A stretch of DNA of 64,000 nucleotides from Actinomycetota bacterium (GTDB taxonomy: Bacteria > Actinomycetota > AC-67). Each line of letters opens with the position of its first letter. Position 1 is the stretch's first letter. The notes below the pieces were generated by a model. That model was not told the DNA's origin. It made no database searches and worked only from the letters and a program-made list of their open reading frames with translations. Both the position numbers and the translations under genes were made by a program. Below are positions 42,675 through 53,458 of this stretch, piece after piece. Where the stretch lies: the NCBI GenBank assembly GCA_046713235.1, contig JBKKBZ010000101.1:345-64344 (forward strand). The letters run 5' to 3'.

Positions 42675-42708
42675 GCATAACGGGTTCGGTTCCAGCCGCA
42701 AGTTATAC
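42675..42708 (-). repeat. attC-11, truncated (about 34 bp) terminal attC-like site
   Basis: gcataac gggttcg gttccagccgcaa gttatac has the arms of the family-A attC with the central region missing. Confidence 0.5.
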
Positions 42709-42721
42709 GGGCCCCTCGAGC

Positions 42722-43273
42722 TCATGCTGGGACCAACCTAACCCACCAATCGCGATTTCGAATAGTGCAGGGCTTGAGATCAGAAAGCGCTTGATAGCCG
42801 GTCGGGTATTGATTGCCGGGCCCGTAGTTCGAGACGTAGCCGATACGACAGTTACCGAGCATGAGTTCCTTGAACGGGTGCTGTGCCTCGTCGAGGTCTA
42901 TGCCGAAGCGGGTTGTCTCAACGAGACAGAGCGTCTTCCCTGAATCGGATTCACTTAGGTACGTGTCGTGTTCGGAGTTTCCCCAGTCGATTGAGCCCTT
43001 GGGACAATCGGGCGCGGGGCCGGGCGTTAGCGTGAAGGCTGCCGAAGGCGCCTGAGTCGGCGTCGTGGATGTCTGGGTGCGAGGACTGGAAGGTCGGCCC
43101 TCGATTCGAGACGATGGACACGCACCGAGTGTTATAGGCAAGAGCCCGACTGCGATCACGGTCCGCCATGTCATGAGCATCTGCACCTCAAGTGAGTTGA
43201 CCCGATGGCCCTCAATAGCAGCTGTGGCCCAGTCCCGAGCATGTCCTTTCGGGCAAGCGAGGCTCACTTTCAA
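42722..43273 (-). CDS. cassette 11: lipoprotein, unknown function
   Basis: MLMTWRTVIAVGLLPITLGAC lipobox. Lower GC. Confidence 0.5.
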   Translation of the reverse strand: MKVSLACPKGHARDWATAAIEGHRVNSLEVQMLMTWRTVIAVGLLPITLGACPSSRIEGRPSSPRTQTSTTPTQAPSAAFTLTPGPAPDCPKGSIDWGNSEHDTYLSESDSGKTLCLVETTRFGIDLDEAQHPFKELMLGNCRIGYVSNYGPGNQYPTGYQALSDLKPCTIRNRDWWVRLVPA

Positions 43274-43290
43274 ATACTAGGCAGGCTCCG

Positions 43291-43365
43291 CCCAACGGTT
43301 TGGCGGCTGAGCAGCCGGGAGCGCGCGCAGCGCGCGAGCGGTCTGTTCCAGTCGCAAGTTAGACG
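43291..43365 (-). repeat. attC-10
   Basis: gcccaac ggtttggcggctgagcagcc ... gttccagtcgcaa gttagac. Confidence 0.7.
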
Positions 43366-43919
43366 GTGGAGATTCCCGCCAACACTTCGCTAATCGCAAG
43401 ATTAGAGTCCTCCAGCCAGACGATGCATCCCTCCGGGTTCTGATCGATTCCCCAGGTCGTGTGTTCAACAAGCTCTCTGGGCACCCAGGCTAGAAGATAG
43501 GGGCTTGGGTAGCGTCGTAGTTCGCGCCGTTCTTCGATCATTGCGACCCAGGTGTCCCAGGGTGGACAGTTATGCGTATCAAAGAAGCCAGCCGATGAGT
43601 CCTGCGCAGCGCCATCAGCGAGCTCGTCATTGGGGAAATAGACCAGCAGGCGTCCAGAGTCTAATGCGCGAGGAACTTCAGTCGAGCGCAACACTTGATG
43701 GCTCCGTAGGACTCCAACATGCCGTACCGCCGAAAAGTAGTCTGCTTCCAGAACCCGCGGACGAGTTTCGTCTCGACGTAAGCATTCCGCCGGATGCGCG
43801 ACATCTACATGCTTCACGCACCAAAGAATCGTTTCGCGAAGTCGAAGCGCTAGCGGATCAAGGGACTCGGAGAGATTCGGCTCGGATCGTCGAATCTTCT
43901 TTGCGAACGACCGCGTCAT
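43359..43919 (-). CDS. cassette 10: hypothetical protein (186 aa)
   Basis: The ORF fills the cassette and its stop lies in the attC box. No family recognised. Confidence 0.5.
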   Translation of the reverse strand: MTRSFAKKIRRSEPNLSESLDPLALRLRETILWCVKHVDVAHPAECLRRDETRPRVLEADYFSAVRHVGVLRSHQVLRSTEVPRALDSGRLLVYFPNDELADGAAQDSSAGFFDTHNCPPWDTWVAMIEERRELRRYPSPYLLAWVPRELVEHTTWGIDQNPEGCIVWLEDSNLAISEVLAGISTV

Positions 43920-43924
43920 GATCC

Positions 43925-43985
43925 GTCTAACGACTTGGGCGCTGACCCGCCGGCGAAGCCGGTCGGGTCCAGCGGCGAGTTCTAC
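43925..43985 (-). repeat. attC-9 (family B, short)
   Basis: gtctaac gacttgggcgctgacccgcc ... gggtccagcggcga gttctac. Confidence 0.65.
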
Positions 43986-43997
43986 GGCCGGGAGTCC

Positions 43998-44210
43998 TCA
44001 AAGCAGCTTCCGAAACTCTTCGATCGTGAGGCCAGCGTCCCGAGCGATTCCACCCATCGTGAGGGCGTTGATTGGGTTCGCGCGCGGAATCGTCAAGATG
44101 CGGCGGCCATCCGACATCACGATGTGCTTCCCCTCGCGAATGACTTCGAAGCCTGCTTTGCGAAGAGCTCGAACCGCACGCTGATGCGAGATGCCGGGAA
44201 TGCTGGGCAT
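43998..44210 (-). CDS. hicA: cassette 9: HicA mRNA-interferase toxin
   Basis: GKHIVMSDGRRILTIPRANPINALTMGGIARDAGLTIEEF is HicA-like. Confidence 0.8.
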   Translation of the reverse strand: MPSIPGISHQRAVRALRKAGFEVIREGKHIVMSDGRRILTIPRANPINALTMGGIARDAGLTIEEFRKLL

Positions 44211-44413
44211 CAGAGGGCGACTTCGATCTCCCGAACTTCCGCTCCTTCGAGCTGCTCGTCGGCGACCGAAAGGTAGGCCTGAATCGCGTCGCGGATGTTC
44301 TCGATAGCCTCGTCCTCATCCTTACCCTGTGACCAGCATCCTGGGAGACCGGGCACGGAGACAGCGACGCCTTCATCCGAACGGTGGAGAGCGATCTTGT
44401 AGCGAACCGTCAT
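44210..44413 (-). CDS. hicB: cassette 9: HicB-like antitoxin (UPF0150)
   Basis: MTVRYKIALHRSDEGVAVSVPGLPGCWSQGKDEDEAIENIRDAI is HicB N-domain-like. Overlaps the hicA start. Confidence 0.75.
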   Translation of the reverse strand: MTVRYKIALHRSDEGVAVSVPGLPGCWSQGKDEDEAIENIRDAIQAYLSVADEQLEGAEVREIEVAL

Positions 44414-44441
44414 ACCCGCATTCTACTCCCGCCGTCCGTCC

Positions 44442-44510
44442 GTTCAACGGCTTGGGAGCTGAGCCGCGCGAGCCCGCAGGGCGAGCGTCGGTTCCAGCCG
44501 CAAGTTGTGC
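44442..44510 (-). repeat. attC-8
   Basis: gttcaac ggcttgggagctgagccgcg ... ggttccagccgcaa gttgtgc. Confidence 0.7.
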
Positions 44511-44571
44511 GGCGACCGATCAGGCGCCTTGGAATTGCACAACGGATTCTCCTCCGGTGACGCGATCGGAC

Positions 44572-45117
44572 TCATGATGCGGTCGGATCACGCGGCTTGT
44601 CCATCGCACTCGCGAGACGCCACGACCCAAGAATCGCTAGCGAGGCACCGCCGACTAGGAGCGCCCACTGCGCGAGCCACCCTGGGTCCGGTCTTCGAGG
44701 GACAGGAGTGCCGGCGCCGAGCACGGACTCGGCCTCCCGAACAGCGGTCGAACCGCGCAGATACTCCGTGCAGAGATTCAGCGGCTGCGGGCTGCCGTTT
44801 GGCTGCGAGACGATGACGTAATCGACCTGCGAGACACTCGTTCCACAGGTGTCCCCACCGCCGCCGGCCACTTTCACTCGCAGATTCGAACGGGCAGGAC
44901 CTTTGAGGACCCGAAGCACGCGGAAGCTCGCGCCGGAAAAGAGATCGATAGAGCGGGGACGCGCGACGTAGACCGCGTCGGCCTCGGTGACCACGTCAGA
45001 GACAGACCCGCGAACGCACGAGCAGGCATGGGCAGGGCTGGAAGAACCTATGAGGAATCCGACGGCTGCCAAGACAGTGAGACTGATGACTCGCGGCCGG
45101 CGCCACATGAGTTTCAC
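44572..45117 (-). CDS. cassette 8: secreted hypothetical protein (C-terminal TM)
   Basis: Signal peptide (ISLTVLAAVGFLIGSSSPAHA) and C-terminal hydrophobic helix. Confidence 0.5.
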   Translation of the reverse strand: MKLMWRRPRVISLTVLAAVGFLIGSSSPAHACSCVRGSVSDVVTEADAVYVARPRSIDLFSGASFRVLRVLKGPARSNLRVKVAGGGGDTCGTSVSQVDYVIVSQPNGSPQPLNLCTEYLRGSTAVREAESVLGAGTPVPRRPDPGWLAQWALLVGGASLAILGSWRLASAMDKPRDPTAS

Positions 45118-45130
45118 GAACTAGCAGTCC

Positions 45131-45206
45131 GCACAACGGACTTGGCGCTCAGCGGCGGCGGCTCGCCGAAGGCCAGCCGTCCGTCCGTTGCAGCGCCTTG
45201 TTAGGC
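45131..45206 (-). repeat. attC-7 (family B)
   Basis: gcacaac ggacttggcgctcagcggcg ... cgttgcagcgcctt gttaggc. Confidence 0.65.
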
Positions 45207-45212
45207 AGCAAG

Positions 45213-45554
45213 TCATGCCGACTCCTTCTGGTATTGGGCATCGAGGTGCTGCGCAAGGTTGAGGACCTCCCGCCACTCCGGTAGCTTGAGTAGATCCGTG
45301 ACGCTTGAGACTCCAGACCCGGAAGCCTCAACAAGCAGCCCATAGAGACGAGCCAGGTCTTTCAACTCGTCCTCGGTGAATGCAGCGAGGAAGGCGGGGC
45401 TCTTCGGGTGGTAGAGGTCAGCACAAAACATGTCGACCAACTCCCCAGGGACATACGCGATCGGGACATTTTGCTCATATTTCAGCTGCCCCGACGGATG
45501 GGCAAGAAGGTGGATGTGCTCCCGCACTGCCCTCCGAATCTCATGAGGTTCCAT
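45213..45554 (-). CDS. cassette 7: hypothetical protein (113 aa)
   Basis: ORF fills the cassette. No family recognised. Confidence 0.45.
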   Translation of the reverse strand: MEPHEIRRAVREHIHLLAHPSGQLKYEQNVPIAYVPGELVDMFCADLYHPKSPAFLAAFTEDELKDLARLYGLLVEASGSGVSSVTDLLKLPEWREVLNLAQHLDAQYQKESA

Positions 45555-45559
45555 GGTCT

Positions 45560-45616
45560 GCCTAACGACTTGGCGCGTCAGCGGCGCGAAGCGTCCGTTG
45601 CACGCGCTTGTTAAAC
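45560..45616 (-). repeat. attC-6 (family B, 57 bp)
   Basis: gcctaac gacttggcgcgtcagcggcg cgaagcgtc cgttgcacgcgctt gttaaac. Confidence 0.65.
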
Positions 45617-46033
45617 CGTGGCGCTGATTCGAATCTCATATCTCGTCCCTGTTCCTAACATGTTTTCTCGAGTCAGGCGCCCAAGTTCCGCGGGGGTTAC
45701 TGCAACGGTCTCCGCTGGTTCAGCAGGATCCCACATGGCCTCGATCCACAAATCAGCCGGCCCCTCGGACGCGAGGGTCTCGAGGGCGATGGCGAGGGGT
45801 TCGAGAATCTCCGATCGCAGGGTCCAATTCGGCGCGTCCCAGTCCACCTCCGCGGGGAGAAAGTCGCCGTCCGTGGACAAGACGCCTCGAATCAAACCCC
45901 GGTCCCTGAAGAATCGGGGCCGGGGATCAACGTGGATTTCCAACCCGCTCTTGCTAGCGAGCCCAGCTGCCCTCTCCAGGGCCTCACGATTCTCGGCACT
46001 CGTGACAGCCCGAATGACGAAACTCAAGCGCAA
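45611..46033 (-). CDS. cassette 6: hypothetical protein (140 aa)
   Basis: Stop codon lies inside the attC box. Confidence 0.45.
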   Translation of the reverse strand: MRLSFVIRAVTSAENREALERAAGLASKSGLEIHVDPRPRFFRDRGLIRGVLSTDGDFLPAEVDWDAPNWTLRSEILEPLAIALETLASEGPADLWIEAMWDPAEPAETVAVTPAELGRLTRENMLGTGTRYEIRISATV

Positions 46034-46043
46034 GCCTTCATCG

Positions 46044-46145
46044 GTTTAACGGTTTGGCGGATGAGCCGCCACGCATCGCGCCCGCACAGCCGAAGATGAA
46101 CGGGCGTCGGGCGCGATCGTGGTCGGTTCCATCCGCAAGTTGTAC
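46044..46145 (-). repeat. attC-5 (family A, about 102 bp)
   Basis: gtttaac ggtttggcggatgagccgcc ... ggttccatccgcaa gttgtac. Confidence 0.7.
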
Positions 46146-46164
46146 GGCACGTTGTTGACCCCCG

Positions 46165-46485
46165 CTACGGTGTCGAGGTCCGAGGCCATCTGAGGATAGC
46201 GCGTGAGACAACTACGACGGCCCCTCCGGCTGCGAGTCCACCTACAGCAACGAGGAAGGCGTACACCATGCGACGGTTGTGTTCAGCGTCGCACTCATCG
46301 TCGTGTCCGGGCACGTGCGGATTCTTTGGAGCGAAGACTATCCCGCACGAAACGATTTGCTCCTCAACATAGCCAGCGCCTTTCGTCTCACCAGCCGGGT
46401 AGGTGTGGTGTGTCGGTACCAAGGCGAGGGCGAGCCCGGACAGTAGACCCATCGCCGCGAGTGCTATTGCTATTCGTCGGTTCAT
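46165..46485 (-). CDS. cassette 5: small signal-peptide/TM protein
   Basis: MNRRIAIALAAMGLLSGLALALVP with a C-terminal TM. Start chosen inside the cassette. Confidence 0.45.
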   Translation of the reverse strand: MNRRIAIALAAMGLLSGLALALVPTHHTYPAGETKGAGYVEEQIVSCGIVFAPKNPHVPGHDDECDAEHNRRMVYAFLVAVGGLAAGGAVVVVSRAILRWPRTSTP

Positions 46486-46599
46486 ATGGGCATCCTCCCC
46501 CAGTGGACAGCGCACGTCCATGACCCTTCGGGCAGTCCGGTGGCGCTCCCCAGGCACCAGAGTCGACGCCGCGTCCCGGGTGTCCGTTTCTATTGGTCC

Positions 46600-46701
46600 G
46601 TACAACGGATTAGCGACTGAGCCGCCGCGTATCGCGCCGGCAAAGCCGAGGTCGAGGGGGCATCGGGCGCGATCGCGGTCGGTTCCAGTCGCAAGTTAGA
46701 C
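46600..46701 (-). repeat. attC-4 (family A, about 102 bp)
   Basis: gtacaac ggattagcgactgagccgcc ... ggttccagtcgcaa gttagac. Confidence 0.7.
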
Positions 46702-46729
46702 GGCGCCCAGTTCAGAGTTCTCGGCGATC

Positions 46730-47404
46730 TCATCTGTCGTCCCTATCCCGTTCAAGAGCCTTCTTTCTTCGACGATACCCAAGGAATGCTGAAATCACAG
46801 CTATCCCTAAGGCCCACGGGAGCCCTCCGACGAGGACTGCTTCTGGCCAAGACACCGGATCAGATGACGTGAATTTGTCCTGCGCCGCACCGGCGAACAG
46901 CAAGCCGACAAACAAACCCAAGGTTATGAGAAGGTCGCGGATTGGATGGTAGGAAGGTATGAACTCAGCGGCGGGCGTGTCCCGATGCTCGGCGGTGCTG
47001 CGTAGTAGTTTTCGGAGATGCTGCAAATCATGTTCAAGGACGCCGATCTCAATTTCAGCCGTCTCGCTCTTGGCAAGCTCGACGACAGCGTCGGGGTTCA
47101 TGCCCCACGCTTCTTTCAATTTGGGTTGTCGTGGGGCCGCTGACGTTGGAACGAGCTTCAGCCGGACATACTTCGAAGGTATCGGGATTCGTGTCCAGAC
47201 GAACACGCCGTTCTCCATCCATCCGATTCCGTTTCGCCAGTGGCGCGCCAAACCTCGTTCCTCGCCGGAGGCGACCCTCAGGCCGCATTCAATCCAGCCT
47301 GGGTGCAACTTCCGAAGCCGAAATCGTCGACGAATCAGGATCCCGAAGAACCCAAATACCGTGACCGGAACGATGATGCCGCCGACGAGCACTAGGGAAT
47401 CCAT
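46730..47404 (-). CDS. cassette 4: multi-pass membrane protein (224 aa)
   Basis: N- and C-terminal TM helices. No family recognised. Confidence 0.5.
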   Translation of the reverse strand: MDSLVLVGGIIVPVTVFGFFGILIRRRFRLRKLHPGWIECGLRVASGEERGLARHWRNGIGWMENGVFVWTRIPIPSKYVRLKLVPTSAAPRQPKLKEAWGMNPDAVVELAKSETAEIEIGVLEHDLQHLRKLLRSTAEHRDTPAAEFIPSYHPIRDLLITLGLFVGLLFAGAAQDKFTSSDPVSWPEAVLVGGLPWALGIAVISAFLGYRRRKKALERDRDDR

Positions 47405-47411
47405 GAAGTCC

Positions 47412-47513
47412 GTCTAATGGATTAGCGGCTGAGCCGCGGCGCGTCGCGCCGCGAAAGCATCGGCTCCGATACGGTCGGGCGCGACCGCCGTCGGTTCCAG
47501 CCGCAAGTTGTAC
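47412..47513 (-). repeat. attC-3 (family A) with degenerate core box (ATTAGAC on array strand instead of GTTAGAC)
   Basis: Plus strand reads gtctaat where the paralogs read gtctaac/gtacaac. The first G of the GTT triplet is replaced by A. Confidence 0.65.
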
Positions 47514-47519
47514 GGCCCA

Positions 47520-47980
47520 TTAATCGGCAGAACTGCCGAGGTAGCGCACATCGTCGAACCCTTCGTGTAGGTCCTTCCAGAAGTCGTCACGCAAGATCTC
47601 AGGATAGACGAGCACGTCCCTGAGCTCATCCTGATTAAACCACCGCGTGGTCCGCTGAAGGTCATTGGGGACATCTCGTTGGGATCCGGGTTGCCGGGAC
47701 TCGTGTCCGTCTGACAAGAAATAGAGCTCAAGCCAGCGAGTATCACGAATCGAATCCCAGAACTCGCGCAAGTAGATAAGCCGGCCGATCTCTACAAGAA
47801 GCCCTGCTTCCTCAAACACCTCGCGCTGGGCGCCGGCGAATAGGGTCGAGTCAGGTTCCTCGAGCCCACCACCGGGCGGTATCCAGTATTCATCACCAGT
47901 CCGCGGGTCGACTTCGCGCACAAGGAGTAACCGGTCTGCGTCGACGATCAGAACCGAAGTCCTAACACCTTGTTTCATTG
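47520..47980 (-). CDS. cassette 3: NUDIX hydrolase
   Basis: Nudix box GGGLEEPDSTLFAGAQREVFEEAGL. Confidence 0.7.
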
Positions 47981-48688
47981 GGTTGGCCGTCCAGCACTCC
48001 GTTCCCAGATTCCTTCCCACTGCACCCATGTGCCCGTCTGCGGCTGTTCACGTAGGGTCGCAACCTCCCGCAGCGCCAACGCGGGCCCGAATCCATCGTG
48101 CGTCAGTGCTTCGAGTTCTTGGCGTGAGAAGAAGTGGATCGGGATCCCATCTTTGGATCCTTCCTGATAACGAATCGCCAGACCGCCCTTCGGGTTCTGG
48201 CTTAGGACCTCATGCCGTCGCCCAATTTCCGTCGAAACTGAGTTCACGCGGAGGAAGAATAGTCCACGTGGACGAAGGAGCCGCTGTGCCTTCTCAAAAT
48301 AAGCGTAGGCTTCGGACTCAGTCCCGTGTTGGAAGACCTGAATCGCAATTAGGTAGTCGAAGTCATGCGGACTGGAGAAGTTAACGAAGTCTACGCACAG
48401 CAACCGGTCGTCCGCGTCGGGCGGCAGCTTCGACCGCAATTGGGCGATGGCTTCCGGTGAGCTGTCGATTCCAACCAGATTCAATCCGGCAGAATGGAGG
48501 GGGACGAAGTTACGGCCGTTCCCGCATCCAACGTACAGCCCTTTCCCCGATTGAACGAGAGGCCGCGACTGGAGGGTGGTGGTGATATCGCGGACGAAGG
48601 GCAAGGGCGGCTCACTCGCATAGCGGCCGAGTCGGTATTCGTTATCCCAGCTCCTTGAAACAGAATCGCGTTTCACGCGTGATCTCAT
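47975..48688 (-). CDS. cassette 3: class I SAM-dependent methyltransferase
   Basis: Motif I LYVGCGNGRN. Stop abuts the NUDIX start with no attC in between. Confidence 0.7.
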   Translation of the reverse strand: MRSRVKRDSVSRSWDNEYRLGRYASEPPLPFVRDITTTLQSRPLVQSGKGLYVGCGNGRNFVPLHSAGLNLVGIDSSPEAIAQLRSKLPPDADDRLLCVDFVNFSSPHDFDYLIAIQVFQHGTESEAYAYFEKAQRLLRPRGLFFLRVNSVSTEIGRRHEVLSQNPKGGLAIRYQEGSKDGIPIHFFSRQELEALTHDGFGPALALREVATLREQPQTGTWVQWEGIWERSAGRPTQ

Positions 48689-48723
48689 CGCCCTTCACCT
48701 ACAGTTGCGGTGGTGGCTGGTCC

Positions 48724-48790
48724 GTACAACGGATTGGCGGCTGAGCCGCGCGAGGCGTAGCCGAGCGGCGGTTCCAGCCGAGAGTTATGC
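48724..48790 (-). repeat. attC-2 (family A, short)
   Basis: gtacaac ggattggcggctgagccgcg ... ggttccagccgaga gttatgc. Confidence 0.7.
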
Positions 48791-49213
48791 CGTGGCGCAA
48801 CCTACCTCCCACCCGAACACGGTAGCGCGCGTGTGAATTGGGTGAATGAGCGCATCGACATCAGATGAAGCGCGCGTGCCGAGCTGGATACCGAGGACAT
48901 CCGTGGCGATCAACTCGAACGAGCGGACCAGCGGCTCAAAGTCGACCTCTGGCGGGTTGTGTGAGTAAGTCACCACGACGACACCACGGCGTTCGACTGC
49001 CCGAAGCTGCACAAGCTTCAAGCAGTCACCGAGCGTGCTCACGTTGCCTGCATAGGGATGCAAGAGGTTCTCCGACCAGTGCTCCGCTGGTTTTCCATTG
49101 TCTCCGAACGGCCGCACAATCTTGAACTCAAGCGCCCAGTGTCCGGGGATGAGGAGATCTGGCTGGCGCATGGTGCGAGCGCGCGCGTACTCCGAATGGC
49201 TCCCGGCAAGCAC
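48785..49213 (-). CDS. cassette 2: hypothetical protein (142 aa)
   Basis: Stop codon within the attC box. Confidence 0.5.
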   Translation of the reverse strand: MLAGSHSEYARARTMRQPDLLIPGHWALEFKIVRPFGDNGKPAEHWSENLLHPYAGNVSTLGDCLKLVQLRAVERRGVVVVTYSHNPPEVDFEPLVRSFELIATDVLGIQLGTRASSDVDALIHPIHTRATVFGWEVGCATA

Positions 49214-49360
49214 ACGGCCGATGCGCGCAACAAGCTGCGGCTCGCCGAATGGACCAGCGCCTGGCTGGAATGCTTTGTGTGCCTCGCCGGACGAGTCGAC
49301 GGCCTTAAGCGCAGCACCGATGCGCGCAATGAGCTCGTTCAGCGTTCACTCCTGGGATCG

Positions 49361-49438
49361 GTATAACGGTCTGGCGGCTGAGCAGCCAGGTAAGCGCGCG
49401 AAGCGCGCGTCCTGGTCTGTTCCAGTCGCGAGTTAAAC
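49361..49438 (-). repeat. attC-1
   Basis: gtataac ggtctggcggctgagcagcc ... gttccagtcgcga gttaaac. Confidence 0.7.
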
Positions 49439-49924
49439 GGCGTCATCGCGCTCCGGGCCTTTCAGTGTTCGACTCTTGATGTAGTCGCAAACCCTATCGG
49501 CTTTGGTTTGTAGGTGGAACCATTCGGCTGCGTTCCACTTCTGCACCGCTACCGCGGTGACCTCTTCGCCATCCGCGCGTCGGATGGTGAGGCCGTAGTA
49601 GCCAGGCTCGCAATCGAGGATTTCTGGCCATGAGATGAGCAGGATGCGAAATGGATTGCGGATGTAGAGGCCCTCCTCGCGGGCCTCGATGTAGGGCACG
49701 ATCGTAATGCGCCAGAGAAGGATGAGCGGACCGGCGATGATTGGTAACGCCAGGAAACCCCAGCCGGGCCATTCTTCTCCGAACCAATCGCCCCATCCCG
49801 GTGAGGTGATCGCCCAGATCATGAGAGCGATGGCGCCGAGGAGGCCCGCGAGGATGACTGCTCCGGCAACTGCGCGTAATGCAAGCGCTGGCCTCCACGG
49901 GAGCGGCTGCTGAGTCGAGGACAT
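49433..49924 (-). CDS. cassette 1: membrane protein with bacterial PH-like (bPH_2/YdbS-like) domain
   Basis: Two TM helices, then a PH-like C-terminus. ATG 13 nt after a GTTAAAC junction box. Stop TAA inside the attC box. Confidence 0.5.
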   Translation of the reverse strand: MSSTQQPLPWRPALALRAVAGAVILAGLLGAIALMIWAITSPGWGDWFGEEWPGWGFLALPIIAGPLILLWRITIVPYIEAREEGLYIRNPFRILLISWPEILDCEPGYYGLTIRRADGEEVTAVAVQKWNAAEWFHLQTKADRVCDYIKSRTLKGPERDDAV

Positions 49925-49943
49925 TCGAACTTGTCCGTTTAAC

Positions 49944-50119
49944 TCTTGTTTCTGCTGACCTGCATAGCGCACATGGCCGCAGGCTAGCACTCGATTCCGT
50001 CGGGAGCCAGACATGGCGGCAGCGCCTATAGCCTGCAGAAACAGCGTATCGGCGGCCCTGCACTCGGCGTGTTATGCCGCCTGCCGGTCGGTATAGCGCG
50101 CGGGTCGGGATAACGTGCA
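49944..50119 (-). other. putative attI region between the intI 3' end and the first cassette junction (GTTAAAC at 49937-49943 on the array strand)
   Basis: A simple junction box with no partner inverted repeat. Contains gttatgc at 50070-50076 and ggataacg motifs that could be integrase-binding repeats. Assignment is by position only. Confidence 0.35.
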
Positions 50120-51136
50120 TCAGAGGCGCCGGAGGGGTCCTGGGCGGTCCAGAGGACTCGAGACGCCCATCGCCCCCCGGTTCAGGACGTGCGTGTAGAT
50201 CATCGTGGTCCGGACGTCGCGGTGGCCGAGGAGTTCCTGGACGGTCCGGATGTCGTAGCCGTCTTCGAGCAGGTGCGTTGCGAAGGAGTGCCGGAAGGTA
50301 TGAGGGCTCACCCGCTTGCTCGAGGAAACCAGCAGGCTCGCGACGCGCACAGCCTTCTGGATCACGGACTCGTGCAGATGATGGCGGTGGCGCAACCCGG
50401 TCTCGGCGTCCCGGTAATGCGACGTCGCCGGGAACACCCATTGCCAGGGCCAGTCGGTTTCCGCGTTGGGGTACTTCCGGCGGAGCGCGGTGGGGAGAGG
50501 CGCTCGACCTAGGCCTTGGCGAAGGTCGGCCTGGTGCTGCCGTTTCACCGAGAGCAGGTGTTCGCTGAGGGACCGCCGCACCGCCCGGGGCAGCATGGTG
50601 ACGCGGTCCCTCCGTCCCTTGCCGTCTCGCACGACGATCTCGCCGCGCTGGAAGTCGAGGTCCTTGATCCGCAGCGAGAGCCCCTCGCCCAGACGGAGTC
50701 CGGTTCCGTACAGCAAGCTCGCAACGAGTCGGGGTGTTCCATCCATCGCCCGAAGAACTGAATCCACCTCTTCGCGCGCGAGCACATCGGGCAGGCGCGC
50801 GGGGCGGCACGCGCGTACCACACCCTCTATTCGATCCAAGGGTTGGTTCAGGACCTGCTCATACAGGAACAGCACCGCCGCGAGCGCTTGGTTCTGTGTG
50901 GAGGCGGAGACCTTCCCTTGGATCGCGAGATGCGACAGGAACGCGTTCACGTGGGACTCGGTGAGATCGCGGGGAGGCTTGCGGTGGAAGGCAAGGTACC
51001 GGCCGATCCAGTGGAGTTAGGCCTTCTCGGTGCGCGGACTGTAGTGCCGCGCGCGCAGCCGCTGAACGACGCGGCCCCTGAGCTCGGGGACATCATCGCG
51101 GGCGACAACACGCAGTCGACCTGCGACCGAATCCAT
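50120..51136 (-). pseudogene. intI: integron integrase IntI, interrupted by in-frame TAA (51017-51019) replacing a conserved Tyr codon
   Basis: Catalytic core intact (R...K...HTFRHSFAT...LGHRDVRTTMIYTHV) and the IntI-specific insert ALRRKYPNAETDWPWQWVFPA...RHRHH is present. The frame upstream of the stop continues as MDSVAGRLRVVARDDVPELRGRVVQRLRARHYSPRTEKA*LHWIGRYLAFH, matching the IntI N-terminus. Confidence 0.8.
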
Positions 51137-51469
51137 GGGCGGATCTTGGGAGCCTCAGTAGGACGCGTCAAGAAGCGGAAGAGTGCGAGAACGCGCCCTG
51201 TGCGCCAAGGGGGAGCACTGACCAGAGCGTGTCGTCGCCGGCTTACGCCTCGACCTCCAAGGTGACGTGCTCGGACAGGATCTCTGCGACACTCGGGCGT
51301 ACACTCATCCTCGCAGGCTCCGGCTCGGGTGCCCCTTGTGGGTCAACTGACCGCTTGGCGGTCTCATACGGAGGGAGCACGCTCTCTCCACTAGATCCCG
51401 CGGCCAGGAGCCCACGCACTCAACCGAAGGACACCAGATCGTGAAAACTACAACTCGTCTGGTCGTTAG

Positions 51470-51554
51470 TGCCCGGGGCAGGTCTCGATCCTGCACGCCC
51501 CCGGAGGGGCAGCGGATTTTAAGTCCGCCGCGTCTGCCGTTTCGCCACCCGGGC
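51470..51554 (-). tRNA. tRNA-Leu (anticodon UAA), long variable arm
   Basis: Manual fold: acceptor GCCCGGG/CCCGGGC, D-arm TGGCGAAACGGCAGACGC, anticodon stem-loop GCGGA-CTTAAAA-TCCGC, long variable arm, T-arm GCAGG-ATCGAGA-CCTGC. T-loop position 54 is A. Confidence 0.75.
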
Positions 51555-51592
51555 CGGCCTCGATGCTACCCGGCGACCCGACCGCCGCGCGG

Positions 51593-53458
51593 CTAGATCG
51601 CGGCGCGGCTGAACTGGGTCTCGTACAGCTCGGTGTACGTGCCGCCGGCGCCGACGAGGTCGGCATGGCGGCCGCGCTCCACGATCCTGCCGCCGTCCAC
51701 CACGAGGATCTCGTCGGCCGCCACGATCGTCGACAGCCGGTGCGCGATCACGATGGACGTTCGGCTCGCCAGCGCATGGCCGAGCGCCCGCTGGATCAAC
51801 GCCTCGGACTCCGAATCCAGATGCGACGTCGCCTCGTCCAGGATCACGATCGCCGCGTCCTTGAGCAGCACCCGCGCGATCGCCAGGAGATGCTTCTCCC
51901 CGCCCGACAGCCGGTAGCCGCGCTCGCCCACCACGGTCCGGTAACCGTCGGGCAGCGACGCGATGAGGTCGTGGATCTGGGCCGCGCTGCACGCCTGGAC
52001 GATCTCCTCGTCGGTCGCCTCCGGCCGCGAGTAGCGCAGGTTGGCGCCGATCGTGTCGTGGAACATGTGCGGATCCTGGGTCACGATCCCGATCGAGGCG
52101 GCCAGCGAAGTCATCGTCACGTCGCGAACGTCCATGCCGTCGATCCGTACTGCGCCCTGCGTGACGTCGTAAATCCGCGGGATCAGCATGGAAATCGTGG
52201 TCTTGCCGGCACCCGAAGGACCCACGAGCGCCACCGTCTCGCCCGGCTCAACCCCGAAGGAAACATCGCGCAGCACCCAATCCGACGGGCGGGATTCCAG
52301 CTCCGTCATGCCCTCCTCCAGCGAGGGAATCGACACCTCGGCACCGGGCGGGTAACGGAACCGCACCCCGTCGAACTCGATCTTTCCGGACGGCCGCTGC
52401 AGCGGCACCGCGCCCTTGCGGTCCCGGATCGGATGCGGGAGATCGAGCACCTCGAAGACCCGTTCGAAGGACACAAACGCCGTCAGCAGATCCACGCGCG
52501 CGTTCGTGAGCTGCGTCAGAGGGCCGTAGAGCTGGGCGATGTACACCGCAAAGGCCGCCACCGTGCCGGCCTGAATGGCTCCGTCGAACACGAGCCTCCC
52601 GCCGAACCAGTACACGACCGCAGTGCCCACAGCGGCCACCAGCCCTAAAATCATGAAGAAACTGCGTGCGAACAGCGCGATCTGAATTCCGATGTCGCGG
52701 AGTCCGCGCGCGCGACCCTGGAAGTCCTCCTTCTCCTGCGACGGCCGGCCGAACAGCTTGACCAGCAGGGCCCCGGCGACGTTGAAGCGCTCGGTCATCA
52801 TGCTGTTCAACCGCGCGTTGAGCTGCATCTGCTCGCGCGTCGCGGACTGAATGCGCTCGCCCAGGCGGCGTGTCGGGAGGATGAACAGCGGGAGCATGGC
52901 CAGCGACAGGACCGTGAGTCTCCACTCCAGAGCCAGCATGACGATCAGCGTCGAGAACACGCTGATGACGTTGGAGGTGACGCTGCCGAGCGTTCCGGTG
53001 ACGGCGTTCTGGGCCCCGATGACGTCGTTGTTGAGCCGGCTGATCAGCGCTCCGGTATGCGTCCGGGTGAAGAACGCCAGCGGCATCCGCTGGACGTGAG
53101 CAAAGAGCGAGGACCGCAGATCAAAGATGAGTCCCTCACCGACCCGCGACGAGAAGAACCGCGCGCCGAGCGACAGCAGGGCCGACCCCAGGGCCACACC
53201 GATCGCCGCGATAGCCAGCCAGTTGAGGCCGGCGGAGTCCCGCTTCGGTAGCACATGGTCGATCAGGCTCCGAAGCAGCAGGGGTGGAACAACGGCAAGA
53301 AACGACCCGGCGACCGTGATCAGCAAGAACAGGATGATCTGCTTCCGGTACGGTTTGGCGAAGCTGAGCGCGCGGGCAATGACCTCACGCGGCAGCTTGC
53401 GGCCCTTGACATCGAGACGCGAACCGAACGGCCCCCGGCCGGCATGTATTGGGAACAT
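51593..53458 (-). CDS. ABC transporter, fused permease + ATPase (exporter, MsbA-like)
   Basis: Six-TM domain, then Walker A GPSGAGKTT, signature LSGGEKHLLAIARVLL and Walker B ILDEATS. Confidence 0.85.
   Translation of the reverse strand: MFPIHAGRGPFGSRLDVKGRKLPREVIARALSFAKPYRKQIILFLLITVAGSFLAVVPPLLLRSLIDHVLPKRDSAGLNWLAIAAIGVALGSALLSLGARFFSSRVGEGLIFDLRSSLFAHVQRMPLAFFTRTHTGALISRLNNDVIGAQNAVTGTLGSVTSNVISVFSTLIVMLALEWRLTVLSLAMLPLFILPTRRLGERIQSATREQMQLNARLNSMMTERFNVAGALLVKLFGRPSQEKEDFQGRARGLRDIGIQIALFARSFFMILGLVAAVGTAVVYWFGGRLVFDGAIQAGTVAAFAVYIAQLYGPLTQLTNARVDLLTAFVSFERVFEVLDLPHPIRDRKGAVPLQRPSGKIEFDGVRFRYPPGAEVSIPSLEEGMTELESRPSDWVLRDVSFGVEPGETVALVGPSGAGKTTISMLIPRIYDVTQGAVRIDGMDVRDVTMTSLAASIGIVTQDPHMFHDTIGANLRYSRPEATDEEIVQACSAAQIHDLIASLPDGYRTVVGERGYRLSGGEKHLLAIARVLLKDAAIVILDEATSHLDSESEALIQRALGHALASRTSIVIAHRLSTIVAADEILVVDGGRIVERGRHADLVGAGGTYTELYETQFSRAAI

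Follow-up and report, generated by a model that had tools for sequence, protein, structure and literature searches.

The integron-integrase gene (intI) at positions 50120..51136 (− strand) of the window, as the whole 64-kb stretch of analyzed DNA is called here, was interrupted once, by an in-frame TAA codon (51017..51019, − strand; codon 40) in place of a conserved tyrosine. As written, this 338-codon gene was a pseudogene (or, should its stop codon be leaky, an attenuated gene), since an uninterrupted frame for the full two-domain protein was not found. The rest of the gene and the associated att sites were intact. We consider it quite probable that the TAA codon represents a real nonsense mutation, recent on an evolutionary scale, and that it affects the integrase of a sedentary chromosomal integron. 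From the sequence, we infer that the base call is probably real, that the change is probably recent and that integrase activity has probably been lost.

According to this interpretation, a C→A change would have turned Tyr codon 40 (TAC) into TAA, and translation from the start codon at 51136 would end too early to yield a full-length integrase. The attI site and ten intact attC sites would then no longer be recombined. Cassette capture, excision, and reshuffling would be lost unless a second integrase, encoded elsewhere in the genome, acted in trans, and the array would be frozen in its present order without having decayed as yet. Loss of integrase activity, with cassettes no longer rearranged, is thus the most likely predicted consequence of the TAA codon.

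Identity of the interrupted gene and position of the stop codon

The intI reading frame (338 sense codons) extended from ATG 51136 to TGA 50122-50120 on the − strand, and its upstream extension was blocked by an in-frame TGA seven codons before the ATG. Profile searches with the encoded protein were performed with the internal stop read as Tyr. The whole protein scored 424.3 bits against the NCBIfam model TIGR02249 ("integron integrase"; curated cutoff 265), while its scores against generic XerC/XerD models were far under the cutoffs of those models. The Pfam domains PF13495 (N-terminal SAM-like domain) and PF00589 (catalytic domain) corresponded to residues 19-100, across the position of the stop, and to residues 119-318, respectively. 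The TIGR02249 score and the extent of PF13495 indicated that the N-terminal likeness to IntI, for which the original prediction had kept coincidence in view, is genuine.

The closest solved structure was that of the Vibrio cholerae integron integrase VchIntIA (PDB 2a3v, E = 8e-82). Its alignment with intI spanned residues 25-331 and was gap-free through the IntI-specific insertion, an additional domain without a counterpart in XerC/D that comprised residues ~222-255 of intI (YPNAETDWPWQWVFPATSHYRDAETGLRHRHH). Eight residues of this insertion (W229, W231, Q232, F235, P236, R251, H252, and H253) were invariant in the family alignment. The tyrosine-recombinase catalytic set (R148, K173, H279, R282, H305, and Y314) was complete and invariant across 19 aligned sequences, in agreement with the earlier statement that the catalytic core downstream of the stop is intact. 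By these sequence criteria, the frame from 51136 to 50120 is identified as a true integron integrase. It shared its domain architecture, including the IntI-specific insertion, with VchIntIA (IntI4) of the V. cholerae superintegron. However, VchIntIA is intact, is encoded divergently from its array, and comes from a gammaproteobacterium whose array is much larger, whereas intI in the window was interrupted and co-oriented with its cassettes.

The TAA codon (51019..51017 in coding direction) was the sole internal stop in the frame, and the peptide around it (...RARHYSPRTEKA*LHWIGRYLAFH...) was exactly that given in the original prediction. In a 120-row alignment, the column of the stop contained Tyr in 116 of 119 homologs, Cys in two, and a gap in one. 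The stop was private to the window sequence, being absent from every relative at the codon-40 column (119 aligned homologs). In the nearest intact ortholog (P0002, 83% amino acid identity, encoded on locus L001 from the Logan assembly of run SRR33619853), the corresponding codons read GAG AAG ACC TAC CTC CAC TGG, versus GAG AAG GCC TAA CTC CAC TGG in the window. Of the adjoining codons, only one differed (GCC in the window versus ACC in L001). Based on this comparison, the lesion is identified as a single C→A change on the coding strand, corresponding to G→T at 51017 on the + strand. The original prediction had placed an in-frame TAA at a conserved Tyr, had proposed a change from TAY to TAA and had suggested comparison with intI orthologs. 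This comparison, with TAC in L001 and Tyr in nearly all homologs, confirmed both the position and the proposed change.

Origin and age of the stop codon

Translation in a single frame did not reveal further stops or frameshifts in intI. Across 109 other columns with at least 95% conservation among the 119 homologs, intI departed from the family residue at none; the median for intact homologs was two departures, and only 16% of them showed zero, a comparison biased in favor of intI by the selection of these homologs for their similarity to it. The dN/dS ratio of intI versus its L001 ortholog was 0.10 over 329 codons, with a dS near 1, which indicated that the history of the lineage was dominated by purifying selection. 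The absence of other lesions, the lack of departures at conserved columns and the low dN/dS together suggest that the gene spent little time under relaxed selection; the stop, if real, appears to be young. A dN/dS of 1.6 for codons 41-62 was considered as a sign of relaxed selection and was set aside as uninformative, because it was based on only 22 codons with 3 synonymous differences, and this stretch varies throughout the family.

A gene that is otherwise flawless, without a change at any of the 109 conserved columns and with its catalytic set complete, fits an artefact as well as it does a very recent mutation. The TAA could thus stem from an error in sequencing or assembly, or from a minority allele that entered the consensus of a metagenomic population, with the organism itself carrying TAC or TAT and a working integrase, an explanation to which we assign a small though appreciable probability. 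The source is an NCBI contig of an uncultured organism, probably a consensus sequence of a metagenome-assembled genome (MAG). Moreover, the single C→A (G→T on the + strand) transversion belongs to a class that is typical of oxidative-damage artefacts. These points have to be weighed against the absence of a homopolymer or repeat at the site of the TAA. In addition, other conserved genes on the contig (encoding enolase, an ABC transporter, an FAD oxidase, and an aminotransferase) were full-length by profile and free of frameshifts, which argues against an error-rich assembly. A scan of the whole window for stops inside GC3-rich frames, performed as an assembly control, was non-discriminating, since antisense frames of real genes also scored high.

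Sequences from the same species were not encountered: metagenome contigs contained no exact match to a pattern that left the third base of the codon free (N), protein-guided scans of genome and metagenome contigs yielded nothing closer than 66 and 64% identity, respectively, and an exact look-up of the 276-amino-acid product that is discussed below returned no contig.

A further argument against an error is the high prior for real intI pseudogenes, which is well above the expected chance that a consensus substitution creates a stop in a given 1-kb gene. Internal stops or frameshifts were found in six to seven of 161 related loci (4%; L003, L039, L076, L077, L092, L103, and possibly L049), a sample whose retrieval favors intact intI genes. 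In L003 (10001-10955), which originates from an Actinomycetota MAG and is the closest genomic relative, intI changed frame within the N-terminal domain, and L039 contained a frameshift near residue 300. L076, L077, L092, and L103 each carried one internal stop, in L092 at a Tyr codon. Three of the interrupted loci (L003, L039, and L076) still had attC sites nearby. For genomes, nearly one third of intI genes have been reported to be pseudogenes with an internal stop or frameshift (Nemergut et al., PMC2426708). The original prediction had listed recent inactivation, an assembly error, and restart at GTG 50950 without a preference among them. A recent inactivation of intI is favored by the lack of any other lesion, the lack of departures at 109 conserved columns and the intact attC sites.

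If real, the nonsense mutation has close parallels. Like class 2 intI2 (Tn7 family, internal ochre stop), intI in the window was an otherwise intact integrase gene with a single in-frame stop and a cassette array persisting beside it. The stop in intI2 is located at codon 179, in the catalytic domain. The stop in the window, at codon 40 in the N-terminal domain, was an independent event at a different position. Furthermore, intI2 is carried by a mobile transposon in Proteobacteria, and its stop has become fixed throughout class 2, whereas the window integron was chromosomal, occurred in an Actinomycetota MAG and had a private stop. Inactivation of intI2 by its one internal stop can be undone, with activity recovered upon suppression or reversion of the stop (PMC2426708). 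A second parallel is provided by Xanthomonas, for which inactivated integrases with stabilized arrays are well known (PMC8618304). As in Xanthomonas pathovars and in the third of intI genes that are pseudogenes, a chromosomal integrase gene would have lost its function through a stop or frameshift, followed by stabilization of the array (PMC2426708, PMC8618304); the window integron differed from these inactivated chromosomal integrases in its host phylum and IntI clade, and in having a single lesion without further decay. Inactivation of intI by a single stop is therefore a common and well-documented phenomenon, of which the window provides an ordinary further instance. The finding itself is of small significance, as it adds one more knocked-out chromosomal integron integrase that has left a stabilized array.

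Restart, readthrough, and recoding at codon 40

Translation from ATG 51136 would end after 39 residues. The first in-frame start beyond the TAA was GTG 50950 (codon 63), 22 codons downstream. A 276-amino-acid open reading frame from this GTG (50120..50950, − strand), which lacks the first 62 residues, is present in the public NCBI annotation of the 66,743-bp contig, in which the record P0001 is 100% identical to it. Restart at GTG 50950 had been proposed in the original prediction as a route to expression, and the product would keep the entire PF00589 domain and the IntI-specific insertion. However, a start at this codon entails loss of 54% of the N-terminal DNA-binding domain, with only profile positions 47-83 of the 85 positions of PF13495 being retained. 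Seven family-invariant residues (L19, Y32, S33, T36, W43, F50, and P55) would be missing. Furthermore, no GGAGG-like or other Shine-Dalgarno-like motif was present in the 40 nt upstream of GTG 50950, and none of 119 aligned homologs began at or past this position. While the GTG is indeed the first available start, an active enzyme is therefore improbable, and we regard it as very unlikely that a real stop is compensated by a 276-amino-acid integrase that still recombines cassettes.

The shortened open reading frame still matched both PF13495 and PF00589. Automated integron surveys would consequently count the locus as a complete, functional integron, which is most likely wrong, and the public annotation of this frame conceals the defect in intI.

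Instead of being bypassed by a restart, a real stop might be leaky. Since TAA differs from a Tyr codon at the wobble position only, decoding of UAA by a near-cognate tRNA-Tyr is predicted to yield the native protein, resulting in a strongly attenuated, though not inactive, integrase that a one-base reversion would restore fully. The base following the stop is a C, and TAA-C is a weak termination context. UAA is, however, the most efficiently terminated stop codon in bacteria and is read through at a very low basal rate. The surroundings of the site did not show a recoding signal, and the stop, which occurred in no relative examined, was not conserved. The only tRNA gene nearby encoded a tRNA-Leu whose TAA anticodon recognizes UUA codons; this tRNA is no ochre suppressor. 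On balance, the chance that readthrough sustains an attenuated integrase appears slim. To our knowledge, integrons of the host lineage, uncultured Actinomycetota, have not been studied. Selection is known to act against costly integrases (PMC3510236), and suppression of the intI2 stop restores activity (PMC2426708); both are consistent with a leaky stop. Along the same lines, it is conceivable, though improbable, that the TAA acts as a low-level or reversible off-switch that keeps a costly recombinase almost silent in uncultured Actinomycetota. As context for this idea, the closest genomic relative, L003, likewise bears an N-terminal lesion in its intI.

Finally, TAA could be read as sense if the organism had an altered genetic code or possessed a dedicated suppressor. 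Nothing specific pointed to such recoding, apart from the rarity of TAA in this 66% GC sequence (212 TAA versus 1454 TGA trinucleotides). Against it, TAA terminated cassette open reading frames inside the R'' box of attC sites, for example in the frame ending at 49433 (GTT-TAA-CTC), and 7 of 78 long open frames ended in TAA. Other conserved genes that were checked did not contain an internal TAA, and the window did not encode a suppressor tRNA, the sole tRNA-Leu having been considered as a candidate and rejected because it reads UUA. The use of TAA as a terminator of cassette frames effectively refutes an altered code, and the probability of a sense reading is close to nil.

attI, cassette array, and chromosomal context

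Whatever the fate of codon 40, intI was accompanied by a well-preserved set of recombination sites. The attI region (49937..50119, − strand) extended from the intI stop to the first cassette and contained a crossover motif GTTAAAC at 49943..49937. In an alignment with L001, homology continued for ~190 nt past the intI stop to ...AAACAAGAGTTAA (GTT 49943-49941), after which different, unrelated cassettes followed. The end of this homology located the predicted attI crossover. In the first ~60 nt past the intI stop (50060-50119, − strand), conservation with L001 was about equal to that of coding sequence. The same segment contained two direct copies of the motif YTAYMCCGACC, GTTATCCCGACC and GCTATACCGACC, which might serve attI as promoter elements or as binding sites for the integrase.

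The cassette array (42675..49942, − strand), delineated by a motif scan and a covariance model, comprised ten complete cassettes and an eleventh with a truncated attC. Its GC content was 58-61%, versus 65-70% in the flanks. The attC sites, ten intact and the truncated eleventh, occupied positions 42675-49438. All were scored with R1, a covariance model built from the ten attC sites. Starting from the intI side, all on the − strand, attC1 (49361..49438; 74.7 bits; z = −4.4 for its bottom-strand hairpin) was followed by attC2 (48724..48790; 70.2 bits), attC3 (47412..47513; 69 bits; fold z = −4.7), attC4 (46600..46701; 72.2 bits; z = −4.2), and attC5 (46044..46145; 72.3 bits; z = −6.1). Further along the array were attC6 (45560..45616; 59.6 bits) and attC7 (45131..45206; 55.8 bits), which represented a second sequence type, attC8 (44442..44510; 71.5 bits), attC9 (43925..43985; 61.4 bits; z = −4.7), and attC10 (43290..43364; 79.4 bits). 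The other eight complete sites shared one sequence type.

The ten complete sites measured 57-102 nt and had ..AAC (R'') and GTTRRRC (R') boxes, with GTTRRRC occurring in nine of the ten. Their bottom strands folded into hairpins with two single-base bulges, and compensatory changes were found in 6 of 11 consensus stem pairs. The array contained only two blemishes. In attC3, R' was ATTAGAC, and the crossover triplet, GTT without exception in the other nine sites, was replaced by ATT; this change would probably lock the methyltransferase and NUDIX cassette to the next cassette. The second blemish was the terminal attC (42675..42708, − strand; motif with one mismatch; 18.5 bits with R1), which consisted of the R''-L'' half only (AACTTGCGGCTGGAACCGAA) and had no partner L'-R' half. 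As judged from its sequence and from the high-GC flank that starts after it, this half-site appears to be the truncated distal end of the array. The description of the locus as a fossil array in the original prediction was thus apt as far as recent inactivation is concerned, which is the best supported reading, but overstated decay, as ten of eleven attC sites were complete and folded properly.

The cassettes encoded a bPH_6-domain (bacterial PH-domain) protein, a methyltransferase together with a NUDIX hydrolase, a HicB/HicA pair and several open reading frames without a family match. The HicB/HicA cassette (44016-44413, − strand), which preceded attC9, combined a HicB-like antitoxin (PF15919) and a HicA toxin (PF07927; both Pfam), with overlapping stop and start codons. 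Toxin-antitoxin cassettes are thought to stabilize sedentary arrays.

intI and all eleven attC matches were located on the − strand, with the array 3' of intI, and the remainder of the 64-kb window, including the opposite flank of intI, contained no attC-like sites. This co-orientation of intI and its cassettes, with attI at the 3' end of intI, had not been mentioned in the original prediction. R1 was also used to search 100 related loci, all of which had been turned so that intI was encoded by the + strand. In 28 of the 31 loci with attC hits, attC sites were located downstream of intI on the same strand, and only three (L058, L067, and L076) showed the classical divergent layout. The related loci with attC hits (L002-L124) were derived from Acidobacteriota, Actinomycetota, Gemmatimonadota, and other MAGs. 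Judging from these relatives, the co-oriented layout appears to be normal for the IntI clade of the window. An "inverted integron-integrase" arrangement, in which intI, attI, and cassettes share one strand and attI lies beside the 3' end of intI, as in the window, has been described for a group that includes Treponema-type IntI (PMC4889954). The likeness to this group is one of layout only; because the group was reported to be paraphyletic (PMC4889954), layout alone defines no clade.

The flank of the integron and further parts of the contig (51469-61450) contained genes for tRNA-Leu, an MsbA-like ABC transporter, enolase, a DivIC-like septation protein, and a DUF501 protein. The named relatives of the enolase were almost all from Actinomycetota MAGs (best non-self identity 79%), as were the closest named relatives of IntI. 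These affiliations point to a host from an uncultured, poorly sampled actinobacterial lineage and to a chromosomal location of the integron. A housekeeping context, similar attC sites, and a HicB/HicA cassette are all characteristics of sedentary chromosomal integrons, although the array, with 10-11 cassettes, was small. Among complete genomes surveyed previously, those of Actinobacteria did not yield a complete integron (PMC4889954, PMC9024848). As a modest side point, the contig has actinobacterial housekeeping genes in physical linkage with an integron of 10-11 cassettes, which supports the existence of native, co-oriented chromosomal integrons in uncultured Actinomycetota.

No site for a cassette promoter (Pc) was found when region 49300-51650 was scanned with the σ70 consensus, a scan that does not model high-GC Actinomycetota promoters. 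Similarly, region 51137-51470 contained no LexA (SOS) box resembling TCGAAC-N4-GTTCGA with up to three mismatches. LexA control of intI is frequent in integrons, without being a defining feature. A sequence TTGACG-N17-CAAGAT-N6-ATG, noticed by eye as a hint of a leaderless transcript, was set aside because the matching ATG in L001 was out of frame.

The tRNA-Leu gene (anticodon TAA; 51469-51554, − strand) was located ~330 nt upstream of the intI start. In L001, the upstream neighbor of intI was a different, protein-coding gene that ended 25 nt before intI, which indicated that the left-hand context of the integron is not conserved. On the contig, the eno, divIC-like, and DUF501 genes were arranged in a row.
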